A DNA stretch of 62,981 nt, the filler included, from Craspedostauros australis (Eukaryota): assembly GCA_030167865.1 (NCBI GenBank). It is 8 parts of 8 records of this genome, joined end to end, with 100 filler letters (N's around TTAATTAATTAA, not from the genome) between each part and the next. Parts side by side here need not be neighbours in the genome. Positions count along the whole stretch, not along the records: positions 22,889 to 52,831 come from JALAGF010006299.1; 7 more parts are not named here. One strand, 5' to 3'. Below are positions 10,005 to 60,501 of the stretch, in pieces. Position 1 is the first letter of the stretch. The number at the start of each line of letters is the position of its first letter. The notes below the pieces were generated by a model, which had not been told where the DNA came from, did no database searches, and worked only from the letters and a program-made list of their open reading frames with translations. Position numbers and translations under genes: made by a program.

Positions 10005-11264
10005 CTATGGGATGAGATTGATATACTCTTCAAATGTGAGCTTGTGAGAATGGTATCTTGCGGATTGCTGATTTCCATTCATGGTGCAATGAATGTTGGC
10101 AAGAAAGGCGACGATGTAGCGGATGAGAGTGAGAGGATTCTGCAGAGTCTTGTTGATGCTACGAATAGTCACCAAAGGGAAATTCTTGGTGATCTCCTTG
10201 AACTCCCACTCAACACAGATGCGTCCAGATGCCATGTCTGCATTGCACTGCGCCTCTGATGATCCAGGGACGGTGTGTTTGAATGCACTGAAAATGTATG
10301 GCGTATTGGGATATGCAGGGTCGCCATATAGACGGTAAGGCGGGTTGTTCTCGTCCATGGGCATCAATACTTCCAGGTCCTCCTCGATACGGCTTTTGGA
10401 GTACATGTATCCATCACCGCGAGCACCTGCAATTGGCCCGAAGTAGTGGATGAACAAACCATCTGGCACAACGATGGCCTGATAGTGCAAACCATGCCCA
10501 CGTTTGTAGCCGGAGTATAGGTCTTTTTGATTCTCCTTGGGACGACATGTTTCCCAGAAGGTACCATCGACATAACCGAACACATCATCTACCAAACCGT
10601 GGGTGAGACGATGGTTGTTCTGTGCATAATCAGGAAAACGAGGATGAAATAAACCGATGTTGCTCAGGTATGGCTTGGCGATGGCATAGAAGTAGGAGTA
10701 GAAAGTAGAGACGATGCTGGATATGCGGGTGCTGTCCATGCTGAATCTAGCTTCCATGTCCCACAGTCGTCCACGATGTGCAAGACGGTACAGCATGAGC
10801 AGCAATCCCATTTCGTATGATACGGTGTATCTGTTCTTCACTTGAATGCAAGCAGGGTCATTCTCACCGGACACTGCCTGATACTTTGGCCAGAGACGGT
10901 CGGCCAAGCGTTGGAGGTAGCACACTCGGAAGCGGAAGTGAGGAACAGCTCCGGTGTCCTCCAATTCTGCGATGGCGATGTTGTGATTAGTGTGTAGAGG
11001 AGGAGGACCCAATGGACCGAGATAAAGCTGCTGCATCTCCAGCACATGGCAGCCTAATGCGATGACGTTGCCATAGTGCTGCAGGAGTATGGCAGCGCCA
11101 GCGGGATCCAGACCCTGCCAATCAATCTGCGAAAGCTCGGTTACAGCCTCCACAAATCTGCGATTGGCTTCCTCCAAAGCCTGCCTCTCAGGGAGAGTGT
11201 TCCAAGTTCGTAGCACCATGGGGGTGATTCTGAGAATGGCTAGTGGGCGAGAACGAGTGTGCAT
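10005..11264 (-). mobile_element. PIF/Harbinger DDE transposase (DDE_Tnp_4/HARBI1-like)
   Basis: HFRFR, LLLMLYRLA, GYVDGT (D), YSGYKRGHGLHYQAIVVPDG, LYGDPAY (D), RICVEWEF (E). Uninterrupted 419-aa ORF at a contig end. Confidence 0.93.
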
Positions 11265-11271
11265 GCAATGG

Positions 11272-11371
11272 NNNNNNNNNNNNNNNNNNNNNNNNNNNNN
11301 NNNNNNNNNNNNNNNTTAATTAATTAANNNNNNNNNNNNNNNNNNNNNNNNNNNNNNNNNNNNNNNNNNNN
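11272..11371. other. Artificial contig spacer (N44-TTAATTAATTAA-N44)
   Basis: Identical 100-nt spacers at 11272, 17594, 22789, 52832, 54711, 58698 and 60502. The 12-mer gives stops in all six frames. Confidence 0.97.
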
Positions 11372-27670: not shown

Positions 27671-27972
27671 AACAACAACACCCGCATCAGCAGAGCACGT
27701 ACAGTATAGGACAGTACGGTGCTCCACAGTGAACTACAGCGCTATTCCACGCATCTGCAATCATCCCCGGCACTGTTATTGCATGATACTCGCACACTCG
27801 CAGCAACAAGAGCCATACGAGTACTTGTGATAGCATAACAGTTTACCATAGCTACATCCTTCCTTCATTCGTCATCACCATTATCAACATGGTCCTCCTT
27901 TGTCTGAGTATGCTGACAGGGTTCAGTACGCATACTCGCACCATGCCCGTACGTGTCCACGAGCTTAGTCCA

Positions 27973-30900
27973 TCATTCGTATTGGGCTGTCGCGTACAAA
28001 GCAAACGCAACCTGACTTCCAAAACCGGCGGCGAATCGGAGCGCGTACCTGCATGCGTACGGTCCGCCCTTGGAGATGTTCAATTCACCAAGGTAATCAT
28101 CCTTCTCCGCATAGTTGGGAATCGGCGGCACCGTCTGTTGCATGAGAACTTCCACCGCAGTCACATCCTCGAACGAAACGCCCATTGGGTGTCCCGTGAA
28201 GCCCTTCGTGTTCAGGATCAGCAATTTGGAGAGCAAGTCATCCCCGAATGCGGTACGCAAGGCAGCCACCTCGTTGCCAGCGCAGCTGCTGGCGCTCGAG
28301 GCATGCGTGCAGGTTTCATGCGAGAAGTACACACCGTGCGTAGCGATCTCGGCCTTCGTGATGCCGTGGATAAGTTCGACCTCCTGAAGGAATCGCTTCA
28401 GTTCCGATCCGATGTGCTTTCTATCCAATGCCGCACCGTGGTAGGCCGAATTGGAGTACTGGGTGGCCAACAACCTCGCTTTCACCTCGAACGGGTGAAG
28501 CGCAAGCTTCTGGCGTTCCATCGTGCTGACCTCAGTCTCCAACACCATACCGATGCCACCGGCTCCCATCACCATGCCCGCCCTTCTCTTGTCGAAGGGG
28601 AGCGCCGCGTCTTCGACTGCGGCAGCCGTGGATGCCGCACCAAGGGCTCGGAAACCAGATCCCAGCCATGGCAGCAACGTCTCACCAGATGCGTTGTCTC
28701 CGGCGACAACCACGACTCGTTGGGCTCGGCCAGAGATGAGCATGTCTTGTGCCATGGCAATGGCCTGGAGTTTGCGTTCAAGCAAATGTTAATGCAAAAA
28801 AGAGAAGGTGAGCGTGGTCCATTGCACAGGGCGCTGATTTTTACTCAACACTTCAATCCCATCACCTCACGTTGCATGCTTCTTCACAGCTTGGACAGCA
28901 TGTCACGAAAAAAGCAGAGAGAGTATGGCAGTCCGCTGTCTCGTACTTACCTGTGTTGTACCTGCACATGCGGCGTTCGTTTGAGTGTTTGGTCCACGGC
29001 ATCCAGCCAACTGGGCCAGCTGAGAGTTGCCAAGCACCAGCACGCGGAATAGGAACTTCCTGTCGAATTCGTACTCCGCCACGGTCTCACCGTCACCGCC
29101 GTTGTCATGGGATGACAGCTCATTGGATCGGGCAAGCAAACGAGCAAACGCGGCCTCATCGTCGTCCGATAGCGCTCGATCTGGCGATGCACGCACGAGA
29201 CGGCTTCGCAGAGCGGAGACCAGCCTCATGGTGGGAGCAGCACCGACGGTCTTGGATTGCAGGAACTTCATCACTTCTCCAACTGCCGCGTCCATGGCTG
29301 GGAAGCTGGAAGCGTACACCACACCTGTGGAATCGCGGTACTGCTCGGGTAGCAGCCAGTCCTTCGGATCCGAAGTCTTACCGCTCACCAGTCCAGCATT
29401 CTTCAGTGCTTCCATACCAGCAGCCACGGCAACCTGCGCGGCCACATCCATAGTGCTTGCCAGGCCACGTGGCACACCGTACAGCGTTGTGAGGTCGAAC
29501 GATCCTAGCTGCGCCGCCAGCTTGACGATCTTCGTCTCGTCATCAACCTTCAACCTCTTCGAAGTGCCATCTGGGAACTTCTTCAGCTGCACCACGTTCT
29601 TTTCCAGCATCGCCATCTTGACGCTGCCGCTGATGGGTGTGATGCACGTCTCTCCCGCGATCAAACGCTTCATGTTGTCGCTGGCGAACACGTTGTCCTG
29701 GTTGCCTGGAAGACCAGCTGCTGTGCCCGTAATGACGCAGGCGACGCGCCTTCTGGCCTCGGTGGCCTTGTCCGCATTGCCCTCCTCCGTCGCAACCAAA
29801 ACTTCCAACTTGCCAGTCACAGGATGCGAAAGCTGATCACGTTTGGACAGGCGAAGAACGATGGGCGGTGCCAATGTCAAGGTCTCCTTGCCTGCCTCGG
29901 GCTTCGCCATCTTGGCATCGAGAGGAACTCTCGAGTATGTTCTTCGCCATTTGGAATCGATGCCGTTGAGGTAGTATGTGCCTGGGAAGAGGCGTCCGAC
30001 ATTTGGGTACACGGGGCTGTACGGTGCACCTGCCCTGTGCATGCGTGCTCTGGTTTCCAGCGCATGGTCCAATTCGCTGGGATCGACTTTCTCGCGTGTT
30101 TGCAGACGATCCATGAGCTTCATGGCAGCCGCCATCTTCTCGACGGAGAACTTGTCGCTCGTTGTTGGCTTGCGGCTGTTGATCATGACACGAGAGTTAT
30201 GTCGAGCAGAGTAGAGTGGAATGGCATATCGACAGTAATCGTTTAAAAAAATGAGGAAGAGTGGAGAGCGTGAGCAAAAAATAGGTTAACGCCAGACCAG
30301 ATGATGGTTGATGACATCAACACCGACATCAACATCATTGGCGATAGTAATTCCCACCAAAGCAAATGAGACACTTACACAGTGAGGCGGTACATGGTGG
30401 CGATTGCTCCGCTGCCGTAGGAGAACATAACGATGGTCTTGCCGGGCGTGAGGTCGCCACGTCCTCCGGCACGATCCACGAGCGACGCCAATCCCAAGAA
30501 GACGCTGGCCGTGTAGGTGTTACCAACCAACTTGCTGACGGCGTTGCTGTCCGTGAGCTTCTCCTTGTAAGTGGCGGCCGAGGCGGTCTTGAGAGCCTTC
30601 TCGAGGGCCTTGTCGGCGTATGTGTCCTCGATGGGTTTCGTGATCCACTCCTTGAGGCCGCTGTCGTCGGCATTGTCGTCCTCATCCTTCTTTTCCTCGT
30701 CGGACTCCTCCTTGCGTCGCGAATCCAAGAAGAATAGCCGACCGAAGGACTTCTGAACGAGCTTATTGTAGGGCGCGTGGAAGCAAAAGTAGTCTGGGGT
30801 GGTGGCATCGAAGGTCGGCGTCGATGCAGCGCTGTTGGTTTTGGATTTCTTCGGCGTGGACAGCGAGGATGAGGACGCCTGTGCCATCTGCACATTCATC

Positions 30901-31944
30901 TTGTCGCAGAACCTAGCGTAAACATCCTCCAACGCCTGGTAGTAGCAAACCTGCGACAGAGCGCCGTCGACGGTGGGATACTCGACCGTGTGATCGGGCT
31001 TGAAGAAATCCCACACGTGCGCGGCATGCGTGGCACGTTCCTTGGGGTTGAAGGCCAGCGGGGCATCGCGCCCGATGAGGACGGCCACGGCCCCCGCACC
31101 GCAAGTGGGACGCGCCGGTCCCCTGGCGTAGGCCGCAATATCGGCAGCCACGACGATGGCGTAACGACCATCCCAGCCGTCGCTCTCCACCCACATCATG
31201 GCGTTGAGCAGCGCGGCCGTGCCGCCGTAGCATGCGTTGACGATGGTGGCGCCTTCAATGTCCGTGTTGCCTGGGAAGAGATCCATGAGGACTGTTTTGG
31301 TGGATTTCGATTTGTCCACCAAGGTCTCCGTTCCAATCTCCAATCGTCCCACCTGCATCGGGTCGATCTCGTATCTGCGAAGAAAAGCATGAACATGGAC
31401 ATGAAAGAGTGGAGTGATTGAGAGTGGTAGTGTGCGAGGAGAGCACTCGGAGTGTGATGAGATCAATGTGATGGACGTATGAGATTGCAAGGAAGACGAT
31501 ATATTACAAGACAATAGGAAAGCACAGCCACCATTGAACACAGGACCAACACTCTTGGAACAACCAGGTAGCCAATCAAGTACTCCAATCATGTACTCAA
31601 CCAACCAACGGACGGAAGACTCACTTCTCGAGCAAGGAATGCACCACCGTCAATGCCAGACTGTTGACATCTTCGGCGTCGCCGCACACGGCCAATCCTT
31701 CCTGTCCCAACCCGATGGTGTAGCGACCTTGCGAGACGCCGGAATGCTTCTCGAGATCGGTCTGCGACACGTAGGTCGATGGTGTGTAGACCTCCATACC
31801 CAGGATTCCGACGTTCTTGTCGCTGTGGCTCGTGGCTGTGTCGCTTCCATGGAAGGAGTTGCTGCTGAGGCGTTGGACGGCACGAGAGGCCACGACGCCG
31901 ACGGCGGCCCCCATGGCCAATGCGCTGCTCACGTTGTCTTGCAT
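27973..31944 (-). CDS. HMGS: HMG-CoA synthase fused to a beta-ketoacyl synthase domain (1110 aa)
   Basis: Exons 31944-31625, 31374-30379, 30175-28951 and 28764-27973 total 3333 nt in frame. HMGS motifs GTETLVDKSKS, NACYGGT, FHAPY, GNTYTAS, SYGSG, GTYYL..ID..WRRTY. KS motifs NAACAGTT, SHETCT, TKGFTGHPMG, AAGFGSQ. Confidence 0.92.
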
Positions 31945-33951
31945 GGTGTGGCGTTGTTTCTTCTGTGGACAGAGTGCACGTGTTATATTATATTGTATTC
32001 CAGTGTATTGATATGGTATAATATTATGGAATATGATACGATATGTCGTCAGAGAGGTATTGTACTGCTACGAGCTTGACCTCCAGCTTGGGCTGCAGGT
32101 CTCCTTTGCAACAATCGCTTGCTGATGTTGTGAGCAGCAAGCAGAGCAGCTCGTACGGAAGGGGTGGGACTCAAGGTCGGTGATACTCCTTGTTGTGTTG
32201 TATTGTACTGTGTTGTATTGTACTGTGTTGTATCGTGTTGTATCGTGTTGCGTTGTGCCAAACCTCCTTCCGATTGGATCGGCTTCAGCTTGCGAGGATG
32301 CTGCAACTGTGAAGTCGTGTTCGCCCAGCTGATGGATGCTGTCAACGATGCTGTCACAACCTGCTGTTGCTGTGATGGTAATCACCTGCCAAAGAATGCG
32401 ATACAATGCAATGCAATGGATTCAACCGCAAGTATAATAGGTAGTAGCTTCTCGGAGTGTTGTGGTATGTGGTTTGGCTGACACGAGGAACGCAATGGAT
32501 CGGGTTGCGATACAAGAAGAGGAGATCATTGTTCCCCATCTCCAGTTTTTTGAAACCGTTCCAACCAAGAGAGAAAGAGCGCGAAGAAGAAAGGAAACGA
32601 ACAACAACAACACAAAAGTTTGCATTGGCGTGACACAACCATTGCCGTTGAATAACTGCAACTTAACGTTCATTGCGAGAGCCATTGCCGATTCAATGGA
32701 CCACACTCAGTTTGACCACTCATCCCAACACCCACAACATCTTTCACTCAGCACTCAACGAAACACACCACACAACACAATTCAGACAACACAATTCACG
32801 CAACAACCATGAAGATGACACACAGCACGAAGACAGCAGCAATGCAAACAGCAACCATGACGACAATGACAAGGAAGACGACGAAGACGACGATGACAAT
32901 GAGATGATGCGTTTCCAACAGTTGCAATGAATGACGACAGGTGCGTGAGCCAAGTCTTTGTCGGAACGACTCTCGCACTCATGGATGCAACACGCACAGG
33001 ATCCGACCACAGCTCGCAACGGATTGCCATTGACGAATTCAGATTCGGGTGAACTCGATGTAACATGTAGACTGTAAAAGTCTCGTGGAGCGTCGTGTGA
33101 TCATGAACCACTTCGAATTAGACCACAATTTTCTGAGGCGAATTCCGGCGTGGGCTTGGGTGGTGTGGGGGTCTTTGTCCTGCGCCGTGTGAACGTGTTT
33201 GCAACCATCATCATCAGTGGCATCAGCAGCAGCAGCAGTAGATGATGGAGCGTGAGCGATTTCGGGCCATCTTGCTCCAGCGACAGCTGCAAAACCACCA
33301 TCACTCTCGATCCTTTCGTTGATTCACTACGGCCGATGATGTCGATAAAAATTTAAAGTTTGAGATCACGATGGAAACGGCATCAAGGCTCCGGCCCTCT
33401 TGCACGCCCAATTGAGTGATACAATCCCATCCCATGAGGCCACAAGTCAATCAGTCAACCAATCGATCGATCGAAGGTATCAGCAGAGCGGAGCGTGTTG
33501 CGTTCCTCACTTCCACGATCATGTCTCCATTCCATTTTTCCAGTGTCCTTGAAAATTAAGCAGATTGGGACAGAAATGCTCACCACTTTTGGTCACAATA
33601 CGCTTCCAAATCTATCAATTCTCAATTTCCACACAAAAAACGACAGATTCCGCTGTCTGTCATACGTACGAACGCAGCCAACATCAACACGCCCAACCAT
33701 CACATCACCACAGAAACGCGTGATGGGCGTCATGACATTCGAGTATCTCGTGCTCTCCACAAGGACACATCAACACAAAAACGGTCTCCCAAACATCATC
33801 GAATCACCGATCCAACAGTCCTTGGACATCTCTCTTGATCTTTGCTTCCTGCAGACTGCTCATATTATCCTCATAAAACGCAAGGCAACAGCAGCAACAA
33901 GGACAACAACGCAGACGTCGACACAGACAAGGATCACACTGACAGCATTTC

Positions 33952-34833
33952 TTGATCATGCGCCGCCATAACTTCCTCGTGCTCATCCTTGAGCTATGCA
34001 TGACAGCAACCATCGTTGGTGGAACGACGGCATTCGCCACACTCCCCGAACTGCAGCTCTCTGCTGCGGCGTCCGGTCGCAGAGCCCTCTCGGCATCCAC
34101 GGTGCCCACAGCGCCGACGGCCAACGCACCGTGGAGAGAGTTGCGTGGAGGCGCCAAACAACGCGGCCAGAAGACACCCGACAACAAGAACCCGTCGGCC
34201 ACCGAGCCAGATGACGAGCTCATCGATCTGGATCTACCCGCCGGAGGAACCAACAAGCTGGGAGCGGCGCTGCTGGTGCCATTCGCATCCTTCGGACGCA
34301 TCTATTCATCAAGTCTGGAAGCACGCCCCATCTTGACCAAGAGCGCGACGGCGGGTTTCATCTTTGCCCTCTCGGATTTCCTGGCCCAGCGGATCGAGCG
34401 CAAGTCCTCGGAAACCAAGCTGGATTGGACGAGACTGATCTGCTCCGGCCTCGTGGGCCTGCTGTACTTCGGTCCCGCCGCGCATTACTGGTACGAGATG
34501 ATCTTCTGGCTGCTGCCCGGCACGTCGTTGGGCTCCACGCTCGCGAAGGCGTTCTGGGGACAGGTCATATTCGGGCCGTCCTTCACGTGCATCTTCTTCG
34601 CTGTCAGCCTGCTGCAGGGCGGCAACTTCACGCTGGGCTCCTGGTGGTCCAAGATCCGATCGGACCTGCCGGGGGCATGGCTGGCAGGCGTCGGTTTCTG
34701 GCCCCTCGTCGATCTCATCAGCTTCTCCATCGTGCCCATCAAGTGGATCCCGCTCTTCATCAACCTCTGCTCGTTGGTCTGGACCATCTACCTGTCTATC
34801 GTCGCCAATAAGTCGACCAGCAAAGCCAGCTAG
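33952..34833 (+). CDS. Mpv17/PMP22 family membrane protein with N-terminal presequence
   Basis: RPILTKSATAG, SDFLAQ, DWTR, GPAAHYWY, QVIFGP, FWPLVDLISF..VP, WTIYLS. Confidence 0.92.
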   Translation: MIMRRHNFLVLILELCMTATIVGGTTAFATLPELQLSAAASGRRALSASTVPTAPTANAPWRELRGGAKQRGQKTPDNKNPSATEPDDELIDLDLPAGGTNKLGAALLVPFASFGRIYSSSLEARPILTKSATAGFIFALSDFLAQRIERKSSETKLDWTRLICSGLVGLLYFGPAAHYWYEMIFWLLPGTSLGSTLAKAFWGQVIFGPSFTCIFFAVSLLQGGNFTLGSWWSKIRSDLPGAWLAGVGFWPLVDLISFSIVPIKWIPLFINLCSLVWTIYLSIVANKSTSKAS

Positions 34834-40761: not shown

Positions 40762-43185
40762 TTAAGCATACGATATAAACGCCTTCAGCTCGTTGTGTGC
40801 AACGTCATTGCCGCTCGTCTCGATCAGGGAGAGTCCATGGGCATCCACGCCCTTGATCTCCAACTTCGCATCATGGTGCGATAGCAACGTCGGTCGATGT
40901 CCCACGCTCACGTACGTCACGCGTTCCTCCTCTGCTGACCCCCTTCGGCGCGATCGCAAGTCCTTCAGCAACGCGTACATCTTGGTCTCGCGTTCGACAT
41001 CCATCGCGGAGGTCGATTCGTCAAGGATCACCAAGCGGGGACGGCTCACTAGCACGCGACCGAAGGCCAAGCGTTGCTGTTCTCCCAACGACAACGTGTT
41101 GCCCCAATCCACCTCGGCATCCAGGATGGCGTTATCCTTGCCGTTGCCAATCTGCCGTGCGACGTGGTACAGGTCAATGTCCTTCAGGATCTGCAGCAGG
41201 TCGTCGTCAGTGGGGATGGTGCGAGTTGGATCCACCGATCGCTGCAGCGTCGTCATTTCCACGTTGACTTTGTTGGATGCATTCTTCTCATTGCCCATGC
41301 TTGGTATTCCTGTTGCATTGGCTGCTGTGGCTGTGGTCATCGGCGCGTCCAAGTTGTCACCGCGCTCATCACTATCGTCCCATCCAAAGTGCGGATACAG
41401 AAGCTGCTCTCGCAACGTGCCCAGCGGACAGTACGGTTTTTGCGGCAGGAAGTAGATCTCGTCGCAGGATGGCCGGATGATCGTGCCACTGCCGGATGTC
41501 CATAGGCCAGCGATGGCACGCAGTAGACTGCTCTTGCCCACACCAGAGGGTCCCATGATCAGCAGCCGTCGTCCCCATGGCAGCTCTGCATTCAGGTTGC
41601 GAATCAGGGTGCGCGGGTTGCTGGAGGGTGTCAGCAACGTGAAGTTTCGTATCGACAATGCAATATTCGGTTGCAGTATTGATTGTGTCGTTGATTGCGT
41701 TGTTGATGATGGTCGCTTGCGTTCTAGAATGGACTGTATCCGTCGAATAGTGATCATTTGCTTCATTGGTTGGGACGACGATAGTGATTGGAATCCCATC
41801 TTGGCCGTCATCTCTTTGGACATGGACGACGTCTGTACCGACATGGCCGTAGCCGTAGGTGGCGTGCCCTTCATCATCAATGGACACCCTTCGTTGTCAC
41901 GATCAGCATCGGCATCGCGAATGGCGGCAAGGAATTGATTGAGCCGATCGATGGCAGCCGAGAATTCTGACAATGATTCGAATTCCGTAATGATGATCGA
42001 CAGATCCTCCAGCACATGCCCGAAAGCCGCTGCTGCCTGCTGAATCACGCCCATCTCAACCTCGCCTGCAAAGTAGTCGGGAGCGACCACGATGATCGGG
42101 AGGATCCACGTGAGGTAGGCGTAGAGCGTCGTGAAGAAGTCCAGATTGCGCTGCGTGCCGATGATCTCCTTTGCATTTTCAATCACTCGATCAAAACGGT
42201 GCTTGATCTGACGACCCTCGATGCGCTCGCCACCGAAGAAGGCGATCGACTCGGCGTGATCACGGATCCGGACCAAGGAGTATCGGAAGTCAGCCTCTCG
42301 CTGCAGACGCACGAAGTTCTGCCGGATCAGCCTGCCACCGATGATGATGGTGAGCAGGGTTCCCACGGTAGCAAAGGCGATGATGGAAAAGAAGAGGTTG
42401 GGTTCGATAGTGAAGAGGATGGTGGAGAATGCCACCAGATCGATCGTCGATACTGCGATGATGAGGAACAGAGATAGCGAGAATTGGGTGAAGTTCTTGA
42501 CATCCTCCGAGATGCGCTGATCGGGATTGTCGATCGCGTGCAGCTGAGAGCGGTCCCTGCCGTCGTCGTCTGCATCGATGTTGCTGGTGCCATTCATATT
42601 GCCACTGCCATTGGATGAAGCGGACGCCGTCTTTTTGGAGTAGCTGCGTTCCAGCGCGTAGTACACCTGGTTGGAATAGTACAGCTCCAGCACCCTGTCC
42701 GTCATCCACTCCCTCCACTGAATCGCCAATCGTTGACGTTGAAATCGGTAGAATACGTTGATAGGCGCCAACGCGACCAACGCGATGAGGAAGTTGCGGA
42801 TGATGCGGTAGAATTCTTCTTCGTTTTGATTGGCCAACGCACTCCAGAAGTCCCTGGCAAGGTAGGAGAAGATGACCCGCACGGTCGAGTTGAGGATCAT
42901 GAGGCAGACCAGAATGAAGAACAGCCATCGTCCCCTGGAGCTCTCTCGAAAGTACGGCATCGCCATGGCCCAAAAGGCGCGAGCTTGGCTGGGTGTTTCA
43001 CGAGTGCTGCCTTTGTTGACGACGCCACCTTGTTTGTTCCCCTTCCCATCATCTCCGATGTCTCCCCGCTCTGCATCGGCCCCCACATGCGACGGCTTGC
43101 CATTGTTGCTGGACCGTGCTGACGTGAGGCCAGCATGTTGGCCGTCCCCGAACGGAACATACGAGTCCCATGTGCCTGCTGACAT
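40762..43185 (-). CDS. ABC transporter subfamily D-like half transporter (ABC_membrane_2 + NBD)
   Basis: IDNPDQRISED, READFRYSLVRIRDHAESIAFF, GPSGVGKSS, FLPQKPY, LSLGEQQRLAF, ILDESTSA, SVGHRP. Confidence 0.93.
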   Translation of the reverse strand: MSAGTWDSYVPFGDGQHAGLTSARSSNNGKPSHVGADAERGDIGDDGKGNKQGGVVNKGSTRETPSQARAFWAMAMPYFRESSRGRWLFFILVCLMILNSTVRVIFSYLARDFWSALANQNEEEFYRIIRNFLIALVALAPINVFYRFQRQRLAIQWREWMTDRVLELYYSNQVYYALERSYSKKTASASSNGSGNMNGTSNIDADDDGRDRSQLHAIDNPDQRISEDVKNFTQFSLSLFLIIAVSTIDLVAFSTILFTIEPNLFFSIIAFATVGTLLTIIIGGRLIRQNFVRLQREADFRYSLVRIRDHAESIAFFGGERIEGRQIKHRFDRVIENAKEIIGTQRNLDFFTTLYAYLTWILPIIVVAPDYFAGEVEMGVIQQAAAAFGHVLEDLSIIITEFESLSEFSAAIDRLNQFLAAIRDADADRDNEGCPLMMKGTPPTATAMSVQTSSMSKEMTAKMGFQSLSSSQPMKQMITIRRIQSILERKRPSSTTQSTTQSILQPNIALSIRNFTLLTPSSNPRTLIRNLNAELPWGRRLLIMGPSGVGKSSLLRAIAGLWTSGSGTIIRPSCDEIYFLPQKPYCPLGTLREQLLYPHFGWDDSDERGDNLDAPMTTATAANATGIPSMGNEKNASNKVNVEMTTLQRSVDPTRTIPTDDDLLQILKDIDLYHVARQIGNGKDNAILDAEVDWGNTLSLGEQQRLAFGRVLVSRPRLVILDESTSAMDVERETKMYALLKDLRSRRRGSAEEERVTYVSVGHRPTLLSHHDAKLEIKGVDAHGLSLIETSGNDVAHNELKAFISYA

Positions 43186-43782
43186 TGCGCAGCAATCCTG
43201 CTGCGATGAATCGAAGAACCGAACGATGGATGGATGAATACGGCGTCCCTTTCAATGGCAAGGTGGTTGTGGTGATGGTGAGATTACGCACACGTATGCA
43301 CCCACATGCTTCCCAACAACAGTGAATCGGTAGCTTCACTTACAGTACCATGCATCAATACCCGTTGCGGCAGACGCACTCTCGTTGTCATTGTCGTCGC
43401 CATAGTCCGTTGTTGTTGCATTTGTCGTTCCTTCACATTTTCAAGTTCATCTCATCGTGTTTTCTGTTTCGAAATCGTGTTGGGTAACGGTCGAATCTTT
43501 GAAAACGGGATTGGATGTAATTCACGAATCGACTCCTCGGAGCATCTTCACGGATGATTTCCACGACCAACCATTTTGCACACAAAATCGGCAAAGGAAA
43601 GGAAAGATACGAAATCCATCACCGACCATGGCGCTCGTTGCGGCGGTGGCGATGATGTTGACGATGATGAGGGTGATACCGCACCACTTGACACACTCAA
43701 TGCCATCCGCTGAGAGCAACAGGAATTGCAACGGCAGCACCAGCTTCAGACAGCGAAACGCGAAGAAGACTTGGGAAGAAAG

Positions 43783-48572: not shown

Positions 48573-49943
48573 CTACTTTTGCTGTTTGCGTTGTTGCAGT
48601 TGTGGGTTGCGGTGGCTGGGACGCTTCATGATCAATCTCTTGAATTTGGTGTAATGTTTTGCATCAATCAAATCGAGGGGTGCTTTGTTGAATTTGTTTT
48701 GGATGTCAGCATTGGCATTGGTTGATTCGATGAGGTACTTCACACACTCCAGGTGGCCTTTGCGGCATGCCACATGAAGGGGAGTGTCACCATCATCGTC
48801 TTCGCAGTTGATGTTTGCCTCACATGATTCAATGAGATACTTTGCACACTCCAGGTGGCCTTTGCGGCATGCCGCATGAAGGGGAGTGGCATCATGGTTG
48901 TTTTGGCAGTTGATGTTCACTCCACATGATTCGATGAGGTACTCGATACACTCCAGGTGGCCTTTGCGGCATGCATCATGAAGGGGAGTGTCACCATCCT
49001 TGTCTTTGCAGTTGGCGGCGGCCTCACATGATTCGATGATGTACATCACACAGTCCAGGTGGCCTTTGCGGCATGCCCAATGAAGGGGAGTGGAATCATA
49101 GTTGTTTTGGCAGTTGACGTCGGCCCCACATGATTCGATGAGGTACTTTGCACACTCCAGGTGGCCTTTGCAGCATGCATCATGAAGGGGGGTGTCACCA
49201 CCGTTGTCTTTGCAGTTGATGTTCGCCCCACATGATTCGATGAGGTACTTGACCCACTTCAGGTGGCCTTTGCAGCATACACCATGAAGGGGAGTCCAAC
49301 CACGGTTGTCTTGGCAGTCGATGTTCACCTCACATGGTTTGATGAGGTACTTGATGCACTCCAGGTGGTCGTAGTGGCATGCCACATGAAGCGGAGTCCA
49401 ATCATGGTTGTTTTTGCAGTTGATGTTTGCCCCACGTGATTCAATGAGGTACTCCACACACTCCAGGAAGCCACCCCCGCATGCCCAATGCAGGGGAGTG
49501 GACCCGTGCTTGTCTTTGCAGTTGGCGTCGACCCCACATGATTTAAAGAGGTATTTCACACATTCTAGGTGGCCACACAAGCATGCCCAATGAAGGGGAG
49601 TGGAACCATCGTTGATTTTGCAGTTGATGTTCGCCCCACATGATTCGATGAAGTACTTCACACACTCCAGGTGGCCGTGCATGCATGCCACATGAAGGGG
49701 AGTGTCACCATCGTCGTCCCTGCGGTTGATGTTCGCCCCACATGATTCGATGAGGTACTTCACACACTCCAGGTGACGGTTGTGGCATGCCCAATGAAGG
49801 AAAGTGCAACCAATCCTGTATGTACCCTTGTTGACATCAACTCCTTTCTTCTGCATCTTGTTCTGCTCCTTCCATTCCTTCCACATCGACAAGTAACTTT
49901 CCTTGGCAGCATCACGGAGTGGATTCTTTGTAACTTTCGACAT
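48573..49943 (-). CDS. Ankyrin repeat protein, 11 tandem 34-aa repeats
   Basis: G.TPLH.AC..GHLECVKYLIESCGANINC.. repeated 11 times (102-bp unit, 48690-49811). Intronless. Confidence 0.9.
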   Translation of the reverse strand: MSKVTKNPLRDAAKESYLSMWKEWKEQNKMQKKGVDVNKGTYRIGCTFLHWACHNRHLECVKYLIESCGANINRRDDDGDTPLHVACMHGHLECVKYFIESCGANINCKINDGSTPLHWACLCGHLECVKYLFKSCGVDANCKDKHGSTPLHWACGGGFLECVEYLIESRGANINCKNNHDWTPLHVACHYDHLECIKYLIKPCEVNIDCQDNRGWTPLHGVCCKGHLKWVKYLIESCGANINCKDNGGDTPLHDACCKGHLECAKYLIESCGADVNCQNNYDSTPLHWACRKGHLDCVMYIIESCEAAANCKDKDGDTPLHDACRKGHLECIEYLIESCGVNINCQNNHDATPLHAACRKGHLECAKYLIESCEANINCEDDDGDTPLHVACRKGHLECVKYLIESTNANADIQNKFNKAPLDLIDAKHYTKFKRLIMKRPSHRNPQLQQRKQQK

Positions 49944-50693
49944 TCTGAGAGTATGGTCGATGGTTGCTGGACAATTGACGTTGAACGATTGGCGTTGGAC
50001 TGGCTGTTGAGCAAGTGTGCAGTTCGAGCTACCTATGACAGAGATATCGATGGTGGCGTCTTCAATAGCTTGTATTAGTATGAGTACTATACAACTACAC
50101 TATGTGATGAATAGTAGTATGAGTGGCAATTCGATGTCAGTTGTTGATGTGCTCGAGTGTGTGGTTGAGTGGAGCACGTCGTTGTCTTGTTCGCATGGTC
50201 TTATCTTTCTCTCTTTGTGCACCCGCATCTTTGTGTTTGCCTTGTTTGCCTCCTTGTCTTGATCGCACCCCTCAGGGAGTTGAGGGAAATATGCATCAAT
50301 GACATATCTCCACCCGTGATTTGGCATCTCGGAACTGGATCGAACAACCTCGAATGTTTTGCGTCACAACACAAATCAACCGTACCCATTTCACAATAAA
50401 CTTACTGTTGTCCAGAACTACTACTACTAATACTACTCTATTGTTATGGTTTGTGTTGATGTTGGTGCTAGATGTGGTGGTACACCATTTGCACTAGGAT
50501 CTGGCATCATTGGGATGGATGGACATGTCATCCTTGGCAATGTCCTTCTCCCTGTGCACCGCAGCACATCGGGCACATCGCACCTTTGTCTTGCCAATGG
50601 GCGTTGCCTTCACCTTTTTGGTGTTTCGGATGCCAAGAGTAAATGCATACATGACATAGAAAGATTGGCATGTCATCATCATCAGAATCATCC

Positions 50694-58240: not shown

Positions 58241-58797
58241 TAGAACACGAACACAAGTGATAGAACACAGATGAAAATAGGTACTAACCTCAAAATTGGG
58301 AGTGATCAGGTCCGTCAAATGAATAGAGTGAAGATGTTGGTAGTTGTCAGTGTGCTCTGAGTGGTTAATTGATGTTAGATGGTATGTAAGCTGGCCCAAT
58401 TCAGAACTGTTGGAGTCTGAATTGTGAGCAGATGAAGATAAAATGATGAAACATGATGCTGAGGCAACATGTGTTGCAACACACAGCAGAGCATGAAGTG
58501 CAGTGCATGAATTGCGGTGCATGAAGTGCAGAGCATGAAGACGTTGTCAAGTTTGCAAGACTGAGGAGGTTCATGGTGCCTCCAATATTGATCTTGCTTC
58601 TTGGAACAACAAAGATGCATGCAACAAATCCAATCATTGCAGAAATGCGATCTTGCCAAATTTGATGAGATTGATGAGCTTGTATCTGAGTCCAGATNNN
58701 NNNNNNNNNNNNNNNNNNNNNNNNNNNNNNNNNNNNNNNNNTTAATTAATTAANNNNNNNNNNNNNNNNNNNNNNNNNNNNNNNNNNNNNNNNNNNN

Positions 58798-60501
58798 CAT
58801 ACGCTCGTGCACAGAAGACGAGAGACGTGATGTTGGGCAAGACCAAGGTGCCAACAGTGAGTGAGATCGCGGCAGCCACCGCTGAAGCCAAGGAAGCGAT
58901 GGAAGAGATCTACGAGCTGGGATGCGACTGCTTCAGCGATCTGATCCTCATGATGGATGCAGAGAAAGGAAAAGGTAAGCAGGCCATCCAGTACATCAAC
59001 CAATGCATCTCCGACGACGACCCCGAAGGAGACGCACACGGAGCGTGGAACGTTCTCGCGGAGAAGTTCCGACCATCCGACGCGGTGACGAAGATCAAAC
59101 TCAANCGNCAATTCAACAACGAAAAGATGAAGAGAGACACGGACCCCNACATCTACATCACGCAACTCGAGAGTCTACGATCGCGTCTCCACGATGTCAA
59201 GTATGAGATCACGGACGAGGAAATGATCATGCAAATCCTCAGCACGGTGAGCAACGAATACATAACTCACATCGTGAACTTCCAACACCAACTCACGTTC
59301 AATCCGGAGCTGGTTACCATCAACACGATCAGAGGGGTACTCCGCACTGCATACGCCACGCACAGAGGAGGCAAAGCATACGTCGACGACTTCCAAGACA
59401 GCAACACGAAGAGCAACGACACNNNNTTCACAAGCACCGGTAACTTCAAGGGTACTTGTCACAACTGTGGCGTGTATGGCCATAGATCCGCCGATTGCCC
59501 AGAACGCAAGAAATCAAACAACAAGAAAAACAACAACAACAACAAGATGAACGGAAAGCGCAACAAGGGAAGCGGCTTCAAGGGGAAGTGCAACTACTGC
59601 GGCATCTTCGGACACCGCGAGGCGGAGTGCCGAAAGAAGAAGTTCAACGAGAAGAAGAAGGCCGACGAACAGGCCAACACAGCAACACAAGGACACGACA
59701 AGAGCGGACACGAGATGGTACTCTCTGCGAAAGACATGCCGCTCTGCATGTTGGTGTCCAACGACTACATCGAAGACTCCTTCTTCGATAACTTCGAGTA
59801 CGTCGGGAGTGACGACGAAGTGCAGGACGATGAGATCGTCCTGGAGTGGCTCAGTGAGGAGCCAATCATCCACGAGGTGGATCCAAGACGCGAAGTGAGC
59901 TACAAATGCTGCTTCAACGCGCATGACCTGATCGGTTCATACGGCGACGAAGCTGAGATGGACGACGAGGCCAACGATAGCGACATCGNNNNNNNNNNNN
60001 NNNNNNNNNNNNNNNNNNNNNNNNNNNNNNNNNNNNNNGATCGGTTCATACGGCGACGAAGCTGAGATGGACGACGAGGCCAACGATAGCGACATCGAAG
60101 AGGCCATGAGCGATGACGATGACGACGCCAACGAGGACGGCGCAGATGAAGACGATGAGGCGGACCGCGGCGCGGCGCCGCCTCCTCCAGCGGCGGGGAT
60201 CAACAGATCGGGCATCTTCGACGAGGATGACAGCGACGAATCCGAGGACGGCAATCATCCAGACGACAGCTTCAATCCAAACGAGCGNGTCGTCTACCCA
60301 GGGAANATCGACTTCCCACCAATCGAGGATCCCAACAGGTCCAACTACCTCCATCGTCATGACACCGTCCCGTATGCAACAGAGACAGCATTGGTGATCC
60401 AGAAGCAACTCATCTTTGATGCAGTGATGGAAGCAGGAGTGAGCCTGTTCCCAGGAGTCGCACAAGGAGTGCTGAGACCAATATGGGTGAACATGATGGG
60501 A
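58798..60501 (+). mobile_element. Ty1/Copia gag (UBN2-type capsid + two CCHC knuckles + acidic insert)
   Basis: GDAHGAWNVLAEKF, DP..YITQLESLR, ITDEEMIMQIL, CHNCGVYGHRSADC, CNYCGIFGHREAEC. No stops seen. Same family as 1-1734. Confidence 0.93.

Follow-up and report, generated by a model that had tools for sequence, protein, structure and literature searches.

One question raised by this locus is why an HMG-CoA synthase (HMGS) should run on into a ketosynthase (KS), and what the second enzyme might do for the first. HMGS uses only acetyl-CoA and acetoacetyl-CoA as substrates, and characterised eukaryotic HMGS enzymes are not known to occur otherwise than on their own, at a length of about 450-520 aa. 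The gene analysed here lies on the minus strand at positions 27973..31944 of a 62,981-nucleotide stretch of Craspedostauros australis DNA (the window). Its exon translations give a 1110-aa protein from four exons (31944-31625, 31374-30379, 30175-28951 and 28764-27973, the last with the stop included), separated by three introns of 250, 203 and 186 nt, each bounded by GT..AG. The coding sequence of 3333 nt begins with an ATG at 31944 and ends with a stop at 27973-27975, and the motif strings GTYYLNGIDSKWRRTYSR, NAACAGTT, SHETCT, KGFTGH, FDRKFLFRVL and GNSQLAQ are all present in the translation. A preliminary description of this DNA had proposed the same four-exon, GT-AG, 1110-aa model, and both its coordinates and its translation were reproduced. 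It had also argued that the fusion is no artefact of splicing, a claim that holds: the HMGS/KS junction falls within exon 3, where the HMGS C-terminus and the N-terminal half of the KS share an uninterrupted 460-aa open frame (28903-30285), so the fusion is independent of the splice model. The locus is one genuine gene for a bifunctional protein. A contig from one read run, the type of which is a guess, spans 27700-28767 and stops 3 nt beyond the exon-4 acceptor, short of the junction.

On sequence grounds, the N-terminal half is a eukaryote-type HMGS of the mevalonate pathway. The domain (residues 43-520, exons 1-3; 29932..31818, minus strand) matches PF01154 (HMG_CoA_synt_N) and PF08540 (HMG_CoA_synt_C), both above the Pfam cut-off, as well as the NCBIfam model TIGR01833, whose cut-off of 286.2 bits is exceeded by exon 2 by itself, at 373.5 bits; exons 1 and 3 contribute 87 and 42 further bits, at model positions 2-66 and 386-456. 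The Pfam scan, and the NCBIfam scan likewise, also recovered a divergent ketoacyl-synt/FabF-like domain. The HMGS half scores 298 bits against plant HMGS (2F82) and 268 bits against the human cytosolic enzyme (2P8U). Glu123 (31326-31328), Cys155 (31230-31232) and His306 (30777-30779), all encoded on the minus strand, lie in the GTE, NACYGG and FHAPY motifs, which hold the HMGS catalytic residues, and align with the same motifs of 2F82. They are kept in 110, 115 and 117 of the 121 aligned sequences, respectively, the remainder being mostly gaps. The protein thus resembles eukaryotic cytosolic HMGS (ERG13, HMGCS1 and plant HMGS; TIGR01833) in that its N-terminal 520 aa pass the curated threshold, match each of the two Pfam halves and hold the motifs with Glu, Cys and His, but differs in the 590 aa of linker and KS appended to them; diatoms also add an N-terminal hydrophobic segment.

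That segment, an Ala/Gly/Val-rich, moderately hydrophobic stretch (residues 7-24; 31873..31926, minus strand) followed by basic and Ser-rich residues, is a putative membrane tether or targeting element, with a Kyte-Doolittle 19-residue mean of 1.57. A 'LAVGAVAGAIAS..RR'-like N-terminal segment is found in many diatom homologues and is missing from many other fused proteins (alignment occupancy 0.41-0.45), so that the anchor-like N-terminus of the preliminary description stands as a moderately hydrophobic feature of many diatoms but does not hold for the fusion at large. Between the two domains lies a linker of about 60 aa (residues 521-580; 29752..29931, minus strand) that is specific to fused proteins and moderately conserved, with identity of 0.37-0.53 in their alignment. 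The KS alignments of relatives begin at about residue 585, marking the linker boundary, and pLDDT falls at the equivalent place in the full-length AlphaFold model P0070. That model has a pLDDT of 90.0 but a pTM of 0.59 and no confident packing of the two domains against each other; as modelled, their relative orientation is not fixed.

Both HMGS and KS are present in 119 of the best 120 long relatives listed, which places the fusion far beyond chance and bears out an early guess that similar fusions were already deposited for other stramenopiles. The fused relatives named include diatoms, Triparma, the brown algae Ectocarpus, Scytosiphon and Ascophyllum, and Phaeothamnion; several of them (P0011, P0014, P0024, P0042 and P0094) are MMETSP transcript ORFs marked 'type:complete'. 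Across 121 aligned fused sequences, mostly from diatoms, identity to the window protein is 0.7-0.88 in the KS blocks, comparable to that in the HMGS blocks. As judged from these alignments, the architecture is shown to be conserved across ochrophyte algae, with comparable constraint on the two halves.

The KS domain, here termed KS' (residues 581-1110, exons 3-4, about 535 aa; 27976..29751, minus strand), was delimited by profile matches, alignment and model. Its AlphaFold model (P0157) has a pLDDT of 85.3 and a pTM of 0.86, and its top Foldseek matches are FabF chains (E about 1e-27; TM of 0.82-0.88 when normalised to the target). The key codons, on the minus strand, are those for Phe730 (29302-29304), Cys842 (28966-28968), His996 (28318-28320), Lys1034 (28204-28206) and His1039 (28189-28191). 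By two alignment methods, C842, H996, K1034, H1039 and F1095 align with C163, H303, K335, H340 and F400 of E. coli FabF. The Cys is kept in all 121 aligned fused sequences and the His, Lys, His and Phe wherever the sequence is untruncated, while all five catalytic residues occur in 102/102 fused and 175/175 megasynthase KS' domains, so that the Cys-His-His triad, as claimed at the outset, is intact.

KS' has the fold and residues of FabF but, judging from the FabF equivalog TIGR03150, is no FabF ortholog, since exon 4 reaches only 73.7 bits and exon 3 only 17.2 bits with that model, the cut-off of which is 493.75. The comparison with FabF/KAS II (E. coli FabF, PDB 1KAS/2GFW) is one of shared fold and a shared Cys-His-His-Lys-Phe set, but the identity is only 16-19%, KS' carries two insertions (one of about 26 aa, the other of about 90-100 aa), and Phe stands in the place of Ile108. 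A clade-specific insertion in the N-terminal half of the KS (about residues 737-812; 29056..29283, minus strand) is common to the prokaryotic megasynthase KS' domains and a gap in FabF; in the P0157 model the insertion consists of long helices at 162-218, after which pLDDT drops below 50 at 219-248. The column of FabF Ile108, assigned with modest profile support (hhalign probability 64%), holds Phe, Tyr or Trp in 312/312 KS' domains. In FabF the I108F change blocks long acyl chains, and the B. subtilis FabF I108F structure is among the listed Foldseek matches of the KS' model. The aromatic residue hints at a short-chain, or initiation, pocket. A FabY-like kinship was rejected, no such structure having appeared in 44 and 59 sequence matches or among the listed Foldseek matches.

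The closest relatives of KS' lie outside the algae. Among 1.84 billion representative proteins, a KS' search gave only 1397 matches at E<=0.001, and elsewhere members of the clade are intact KS domains that stand second within PfaA-like type I synthases of 2000-3900 aa with the domain order [ER]-KS-AT-KS'-ACPn-KR-DH-[PPTase]. Such synthases are found in Asgard archaea, Thermoplasmatota, Bathyarchaeia, Chloroflexota, Zixibacteria and others, and our literature search turned up nothing published on what KS' does within them. The fused KS, as a 535-aa query, aligns with synthase KS' over about positions 10-530 at ~400 bits (340-430) and 45-50% identity, and exon 4 alone is 44-51% identical. A resemblance to bacterial PKS-like KS domains, noted earlier as unverified, is thereby confirmed end to end and sharpened to one particular domain, the internal second KS of PfaA-like synthases. 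By these comparisons, KS' is a distinct clade, new here, that is neither ordinary FabF nor NphT7-like.

The likeness to synthase KS' extends from the end-to-end match to both clade-specific insertions, the catalytic residues and the aromatic at the Ile108 column. What differs is the setting: there KS' is embedded beside AT and ACP, directly upstream of the ACP domains, whereas here it follows HMGS with no carrier and no domain downstream. The order KS-AT-KS'-ACP-KR-DH does not occur in the window protein, and what is shared is a domain and not an architecture. In a KS' tree rooted with FabF alone, on a very long branch, the fused KS' clade is monophyletic and falls outside the named prokaryotic groups. 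Only 14 clade-specific differences, mostly conservative, separate fused from megasynthase KS', and no re-tooling from ACP to CoA is visible at these positions. A sister clade of the fused KS' joins the same domain to a different N-terminal region with a weak methyltransferase match; a homologue search for it yielded three proteins, with weak atlas leads at 0.82. An atlas search with the megasynthase KS' part returned mixed taxa.

The reading that we favour, though we would put it at somewhat short of an even chance, is that a decarboxylative condensation by KS' yields an acetoacetyl thioester, which is handed to the fused HMGS. KS' would then be an initiation-type condensing enzyme, in which Cys842 would be acetylated and His996, His1039 and Lys1034 would remove CO2 from a malonyl thioester; as the fusion lacks an ACP, this thioester would most likely be malonyl-CoA. 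The acetoacetyl thioester would serve as the second substrate of HMGS, for a net reaction of acetyl-CoA + malonyl-CoA + acetyl-CoA -> HMG-CoA + CO2 + 2 CoA. The mevalonate pathway would thus open with an irreversible step linked to acetyl-CoA carboxylase, with no reliance on the unfavourable thiolase equilibrium; the fusion would confine a labile intermediate locally, and in diatoms the hydrophobic N-terminus may tether the enzyme to a membrane. The module probably arose as the second KS in PfaA-like synthases of prokaryotes, where KS' may carry out the same C2-to-C4 priming on ACP. This reading draws support from the substrate needs of HMGS, from the rule that fused enzymes usually catalyse neighbouring steps, and from NphT7, a natural example of the malonyl-CoA route. 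Malonyl-CoA-dependent acetoacetyl-CoA synthesis, thiolase independence and channelling would be the most economical account of the fusion.

The effect would be akin to that of NphT7 plus HMGS, but achieved with a KAS I/II-type domain. The Streptomyces acetoacetyl-CoA synthase NphT7 converts acetyl-CoA and malonyl-CoA to acetoacetyl-CoA and CO2, feeding HMGS, as KS' would by analogy; it is a stand-alone KAS III (FabH-like) enzyme with a Cys-His-Asn triad, whereas KS' is KAS I/II-like, Cys-His-His and fused. FabH-family scores were marginal and came from sister-clade proteins, the best families of KS' are FabF-type, and ACP_syn_III matches around the KS' Cys were sub-threshold (18-20 bits, cut-off 24); an NphT7-type KAS III was accordingly rejected. 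Physical coupling of the first, unfavourable condensation to a later mevalonate-pathway enzyme is also seen in the archaeal thiolase/HMGS/DUF35 complex and in enterococcal MvaE, a thiolase-HMGR fusion, but both employ a true, non-decarboxylative thiolase. Pfam found no match to Thiolase_N/C or DUF35 in the four exon translations, and a complex of the archaeal type was rejected for the fusion.

Several observations count against malonyl-CoA-dependent priming. KAS I/II enzymes normally use malonyl-ACP, and the fusion has no ACP in cis, yet the relatives of KS' adjoin one. The few, mostly conservative differences from megasynthase KS', with no sign of re-tooling, weigh against malonyl-CoA as the substrate. 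The low confidence in domain packing and the modest profile support for the Ile108 alignment also tell against this reading. A Heimdallarchaeota genome with a stand-alone KS' also encodes an ordinary, adjacent thiolase-HMGS pair, which argues against KS' replacing thiolase; in that one genome, the stand-alone archaeal KS' was rejected as a thiolase substitute. Against a thiolase-free reading for diatoms, the thiolase (AACT) step is still drawn in the pathway figure, at least, of one review (PMC12942017).

The same observations lend themselves to a different account, unlikely in our estimation, in which KS' serves another pathway, such as a condensation in lipid or polyketide synthesis in the cytosol or at the ER, perhaps with an ACP acting in trans, and is fused to HMGS for co-expression, co-localisation or a shared acetyl-/malonyl-CoA pool. 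Its nearest relatives belong to PfaA-like synthases that depend on ACP, the full-length model predicts no fixed packing between the two domains, and the sister clade, by pairing KS' with another N-terminal region, indicates that KS' is not bound to HMGS as such. That said, wherever the fusion was observed, across distant ochrophyte classes, it and both catalytic sets are kept, which is unusual for unrelated partners, and no ACP, AT, KR or DH lies beside KS' in the best 120 long relatives (for ACP, no PP-binding domain by Pfam in the window protein or by precomputed Pfam in those relatives).

Polyketide beta-branching offers another precedent for a KS-family protein working with an HMGS-family protein. 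In these cassettes a KS-like decarboxylase without an active-site Cys makes acetyl-ACP and acts with an ACP and an HMGS homologue. KS' might likewise be mainly a malonyl-thioester decarboxylase supplying the acetyl donor to HMGS, and its His-His-Lys decarboxylation set is intact. We consider this improbable: the cassette KS is Cys-less and everything there is ACP-bound, whereas here the nucleophilic Cys is present in 121/121 fused sequences, which led us to reject a cassette-type identity, there is no ACP, and the HMGS half is an orthodox, CoA-type enzyme of primary metabolism. The benefit is also unclear, since malonyl-CoA is itself made from acetyl-CoA. Less probable again is the option, raised in the preliminary description, that KS' makes longer 3-oxoacyl thioesters to which the HMGS half adds a beta-branch, yielding branched lipids and no HMG-CoA. 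It has a purely formal analogy to beta-branching and the occurrence of KS' relatives in long-chain synthases in its favour, but is disfavoured by an HMGS half that passes the curated eukaryotic equivalog threshold, by the aromatic at the Ile108 column in every KS' domain, which argues for a short pocket, and by the use of the gene as 'the' HMGS of Phaeodactylum in the accessible parts of the literature. Least probable of all is a catalytically silent KS' acting as a dimerisation or scaffolding module like DUF35 of the archaeal complex; KS folds are obligate dimers and scaffolded HMGS has that archaeal precedent, but a pure scaffold would have no need of catalytic residues that are invariant in 102/102 fused domains.

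Our literature search found no description of an HMGS-KS fusion, though papers behind a subscription, such as the first accounts of the pathway in Phaeodactylum and in Haslea, or supplements may mention it. In the accessible parts of five papers (PMC7766473, PMC6330534, PMC13412983, PMC9004409 and PMC12168105), the Phaeodactylum gene is treated as a plain HMGS and the fusion goes undescribed.

The conserved fusion suggests a putative alternative feed into the sterol and isoprenoid pathways of diatoms and brown algae, which are major primary producers and whose sterols and isoprenoids serve as biomarkers and engineering targets. In its broadest form, the proposal is that ochrophytes (diatoms, bolidophytes, brown algae and their relatives) begin the mevalonate pathway with a hitherto unrecognised HMGS-fused, KAS I/II-type, malonyl-CoA-dependent acetoacetyl-CoA synthase, acquired from the KS that primes PfaA-like megasynthases in prokaryotes, possibly archaea, and that the same KS' clade is the long-sought initiation module of the archaeal and bacterial megasynthases; we offer this more tentatively, as rather less likely than not. 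If true, the thermodynamically unfavourable first step of the pathway would have been solved differently across an algal phylum: CO2 release would drive the flux to sterols and isoprenoids, and acetyl-CoA carboxylase, in place of thiolase, would gate it. Flux models and engineering strategies built on over-expression of thiolase or HMGR would need revising, and flux would be sensitive to KS inhibitors, which could then serve as probes of algal sterol synthesis. Whatever its function, the KS' clade ties an enzyme of algal primary metabolism to a large and so far undescribed family of megasynthases with two KS domains from Asgard and other archaea and Chloroflexota, a link relevant to the transfer of genes into ochrophytes as well as to fatty-acyl or polyketide synthesis in archaea.

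The fused gene lies on the minus strand in four exons, with its ATG at 31944 and its stop codon at 27973-27975: exon 1 at 31944-31625, exon 2 at 31374-30379, exon 3 at 30175-28951 (translation P0001) and exon 4, stop codon included, at 28764-27973. The three introns (250, 203 and 186 nt) all show GT..AG boundaries, and the 3333-nt coding sequence yields a protein of 1110 aa, in which every peptide string quoted in the preliminary description was found. A single open frame of 460 codons (28903-30285) contains both the C-terminal end of the HMG-CoA synthase (HMGS; ..GTYYLNGIDSKWRRTYSR) and the N-terminal half of the ketosynthase (KS) as far as its active-site Cys. The fusion is therefore independent of splice prediction, and the earlier contention that it is no artefact of the splicing model stands, the junction falling inside this frame of exon 3. 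The public sequencing run X1, whose kind was guessed as RNA, gave one perfectly matching contig (27700-28767) ending 3 nt past the exon-4 acceptor (28764/28765); that end could be an assembly break at the splice junction and shows nothing alone.

Pfam and NCBIfam scans of the four exon translations found HMG_CoA_synt_N and HMG_CoA_synt_C (Pfam), and exon 2 alone scored 373.5 bits against the eukaryotic equivalog TIGR01833 (NCBIfam), whose cut-off is 286.2. The HMGS part also matched plant HMGS (2F82) at 298 bits and human cytosolic HMGS (2P8U) at 268 bits. Judged by these comparisons of sequence, the HMGS half belongs to the eukaryotic HMGS family. Its Glu/Cys/His/Asn motif residues are intact, as had been claimed, and are retained in 110-118 of 121 aligned fused sequences, the others being mostly gaps in truncated models.

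The anchor-like hydrophobic N-terminus first described is better regarded as a feature of diatoms. Residues 7-24 (SALAMGAAVGVVASRAVQ; 31873-31926, minus strand) are moderately hydrophobic, and many diatom homologues carry a like segment, 'LAVGAVAGAIAS..RR', that is rich in Ala, Gly and Val, has a small-xxx-small pattern and is followed after the Arg by a Ser-rich tract. In diatoms it is possibly a membrane tether or targeting signal. In its place, a few homologues from outside the diatoms (P0083, P0085, P0088, P0084 and P0087) carry N-terminal extensions that are longer and strongly hydrophobic (Kyte-Doolittle means of 2.1-2.6). Many other fused homologues begin directly at the HMGS core, and the segment is not general to the fusion.

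The joint conservation of the two halves is extensive. A search of long proteins with exon 3 returned 140 matches, and among the best 120 of these, HMGS and KS parts were both present in 119 (phmmer); the lone exception, P0073, has only a KS and resembles a truncated model. The closest match listed was P0005, a Staurosira-like MMETSP peptide with 87% identity over 1093 aligned positions, which assigns the window to a pennate diatom. The matches listed include fusions from the diatoms Nitzschia, Pseudo-nitzschia, Fragilaria crotonensis, Cylindrotheca, Mayamaea, Thalassiosira, Cyclotella, Stephanocyclus, Skeletonema, Leptocylindrus and Dactyliosolen, the bolidophyte Triparma, the brown algae Ectocarpus, Scytosiphon and Ascophyllum, and Phaeothamnion, bearing out the suggestion that similar fusions were already deposited for other stramenopiles. 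Five fused transcriptome ORFs (P0011, P0014, P0024, P0042 and P0094) are flagged 'type:complete', and thus HMGS and KS occupy a single transcript in relatives. Block-wise identity to the window protein across the 121 aligned fused sequences is 0.7-0.88 for KS and 0.64-0.92 for HMGS, with the linker and N-terminus less conserved. One polypeptide thus unites an HMGS of the orthodox mevalonate type with all the catalytic residues of a decarboxylating KS, and the two are jointly conserved across ochrophyte classes. One fused homologue of 1521 aa, P0081, has a 467-aa N-terminal extension ending in an HMGS C-terminal-like motif (..RLFPGTYYLERI..), which could come from a tandem duplication or from merged gene models.

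The KS half falls into a distinct clade, here called KS', together with the second KS of PfaA-like megasynthases. Conventional models recognize it poorly: ketoacyl-synt gave a weak Pfam match (27 bits) in the C-terminal half of the window protein, exon 4 reached 73.7 bits against a cut-off of 493.75 for the FabF-type TIGR03150, and E. coli FabF matched the KS at just 46 bits. When exon 4 was searched exhaustively with phmmer against 1.84 billion representatives, no more than 1397 proteins matched at E<=0.001, 369 of them at E<=1e-30. The KS Cys is present in all 121 aligned fused sequences, and the His, Lys, His and Phe in 97-112 of them, gaps explaining nearly all the others. Where KS' domains were compared, these residues (the Phe being that of the GFG motif) were complete in 102/102 fused, 175/175 megasynthase and 35/35 shorter sequences, in agreement with the Cys-His-His set originally reported.

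An AlphaFold model of the KS'-only relative P0157 (80-row alignment; pLDDT 85.3, pTM 0.86) found its best structural matches among FabF/KAS II chains, with E ~1e-27, target-normalised TM of 0.82-0.88 and 16-19% identity. With E. coli FabF taken from the K-12 record and numbered as usual, a profile alignment and a 130-sequence MAFFT alignment agree in equating C842 with C163, H996 with H303, K1034 with K335, H1039 with H340 and F1095 with F400. Relative to FabF, KS' has an additional hairpin of ~26 aa and an insertion of ~90-100 aa, modelled in P0157 as long helices and then a segment of low confidence. The KS half is thus like FabF in fold and chemistry, yet far below the FabF family threshold. 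Both alignments place Phe730 at the position of FabF Ile108, with modest profile support there (probability 64%), and this column is aromatic (Phe, Tyr or Trp) in all 312 KS' domains. In FabF, Ile108 lies at the entrance of the acyl pocket, and an I108F change stops longer chains; a B. subtilis FabF I108F structure occurs among the structural matches to the P0157 model. The aromatic residue hints that KS' takes very short primers.

After the fused proteins, the next-best exon 4 matches are domains within proteins of 2000-3900 aa (44-51% identity, 205-250 bits). Against these, the window protein's KS region of 535 aa can be aligned end to end (query ~10-530) at 340-430 bits, the insertion relative to FabF included, which substantiates the suspected resemblance to PKS-like KS domains. 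Pfam and NCBIfam give the megasynthase architecture as [FabK/NMO-type enoyl reductase]-KS-AT-KS'-ACP(1-3)-KR-DH-[HetI-like PPTase], with both KS domains intact and flanks like those of PfaA from polyunsaturated-fatty-acid synthases (TIGR02813, 820-1126 bits). The AT resembles a malonyl-specific FabD (TIGR00128, 237-253 bits). For the KS' of these enzymes, the aromatic residue in the Ile108 column suggests a C2-to-C4 priming role on ACP. Where sources are named, they are archaeal (the Asgard groups Heimdallarchaeota, Kariarchaeaceae and Thorarchaeota; Thermoplasmatota; Bathyarchaeia) or bacterial (the Chloroflexota Anaerolineae and Roseiflexus; Zixibacteria; Thermoanaerobaculia; Leptospiraceae). 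Two-KS PfaA-like synthases form a large family among the database relatives P0143-P0376 (e.g. P0161, P0168, P0149, P0155). The window KS half is a member of the KS' clade, but the usual domain context of that clade is absent.

A FastTree phylogeny built on 312 KS' domains gathers the fused sequences and 7 short, probably truncated proteins into a single clade (support 1.0). Its sister comprises 10 proteins of 549-1205 aa (P0160, P0152, P0162, P0146, P0153, P0166, P0172, P0148, P0144 and P0150; support for the pair 1.0), several of which have a weak class-I methyltransferase match (PF08241, ~22 bits) N-terminal to KS', while others bear extensions of no assigned family. The pair lies among deep megasynthase lineages and outside every named prokaryotic group, in a tree whose sole outgroup, FabF, has a very long branch. 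Acquisition of KS' by transfer from some prokaryote is plausible. A Heimdallarchaeota MAG contig also carries a stand-alone KS' gene of 552 aa (L002:10001-11659, plus strand), and no gene for PKS, FAS or ACP lies within 10 kb of it. This genome also has a 3524-aa megasynthase-type open frame (L005) and a normal thiolase (L004) adjoining HMGS (L006); because of this thiolase-HMGS pair, the stand-alone KS' was ruled out as a thiolase substitute there.

HMGS uses acetyl-CoA and acetoacetyl-CoA and nothing further, and a Cys-His-His KS joins an acyl primer to a malonyl thioester, giving a 3-oxoacyl thioester. The simplest coupling, and the leading though tentative proposal here, is that KS' makes the acetoacetyl thioester for the fused HMGS. 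It would condense acetyl and malonyl groups, both as CoA esters because no PP-binding domain was found among the 120 fused proteins listed (best 120 of 140; precomputed Pfam), and the adjoining HMGS would consume the acetoacetyl product. The thiolase step, which is thermodynamically unfavourable, would thereby be replaced or by-passed, as happens with NphT7 of Streptomyces, although KS' is a different scaffold and is fused to its consumer. With its Cys-His-His set and FabF-type matches, the KS is not a member of the NphT7/KAS III family; nor, having neither thiolase nor DUF35 domains, does the window protein belong with the archaeal thiolase/HMGS/DUF35 system.

An aromatic side chain in place of Ile108 suits a C2-to-C4 priming enzyme, in keeping with acetoacetyl supply. 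That said, the relatives of KS' are ACP-dependent by context, and fused and megasynthase KS' differ at only 14 mostly conservative positions, and therefore show no sign of a carrier change. A rather unlikely alternative is that KS' serves another pathway with a carrier in trans. Also against acetoacetyl supply, the monomer model of the full-length fused protein P0070 (pLDDT 90.0) has a pTM of 0.59, so the arrangement of its two domains is not fixed, and diatom pathway figures, in the portions of those sources available, still draw thiolase. Action of KS' as a malonyl decarboxylase providing the acetyl donor is improbable, and beta-branching of longer chains highly so; the decarboxylases of beta-branching cassettes are Cys-less, and the window KS is not one of them. 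That a domain with this catalytic set is a silent scaffold is scarcely to be expected.

Elsewhere in the window are frames for an ABCD-type half transporter (ABC_membrane_2 + ABC_tran; 40765-43251, minus strand) and an Mpv17/PMP22-family membrane protein (33943-34830, plus strand). Both families are typically peroxisomal in other eukaryotes, and their nearness to the HMGS-KS' gene is probably coincidental. Further frames are a DDE_Tnp_4 transposase-like one (10008-11315, minus strand), a copia-type gag with zinc knuckle (58746-60062, plus strand) and a long ankyrin-repeat frame (48576-50099, minus strand). Numerous short N runs (scaffold gaps) occur, with 1652 N in total.

Fused proteins appear in public databases as 'hydroxymethylglutaryl-CoA synthase', 'hypothetical protein' or 'KS3 domain-containing protein'. 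Phaeodactylum Phatr3_J16649 is handled simply as HMGS in the accessible part of one paper (PMC6330534), and as plain HMGS in that of another (PMC12168105). No description of the HMGS-KS' fusion or of the KS-AT-KS'-ACP synthases was found in the full-text literature, subscription journals and supplements being beyond reach. What appears to be new is the phylum-wide combination of known enzyme families, with an unexpected prokaryotic affinity. The first interpretation survives in its architecture, conservation and PKS-like affinity, its functional part being held as tentatively as stated. The HMGS-KS' fusion is surprising to those who work on isoprenoid and algal metabolism, and standard assays could test it directly.
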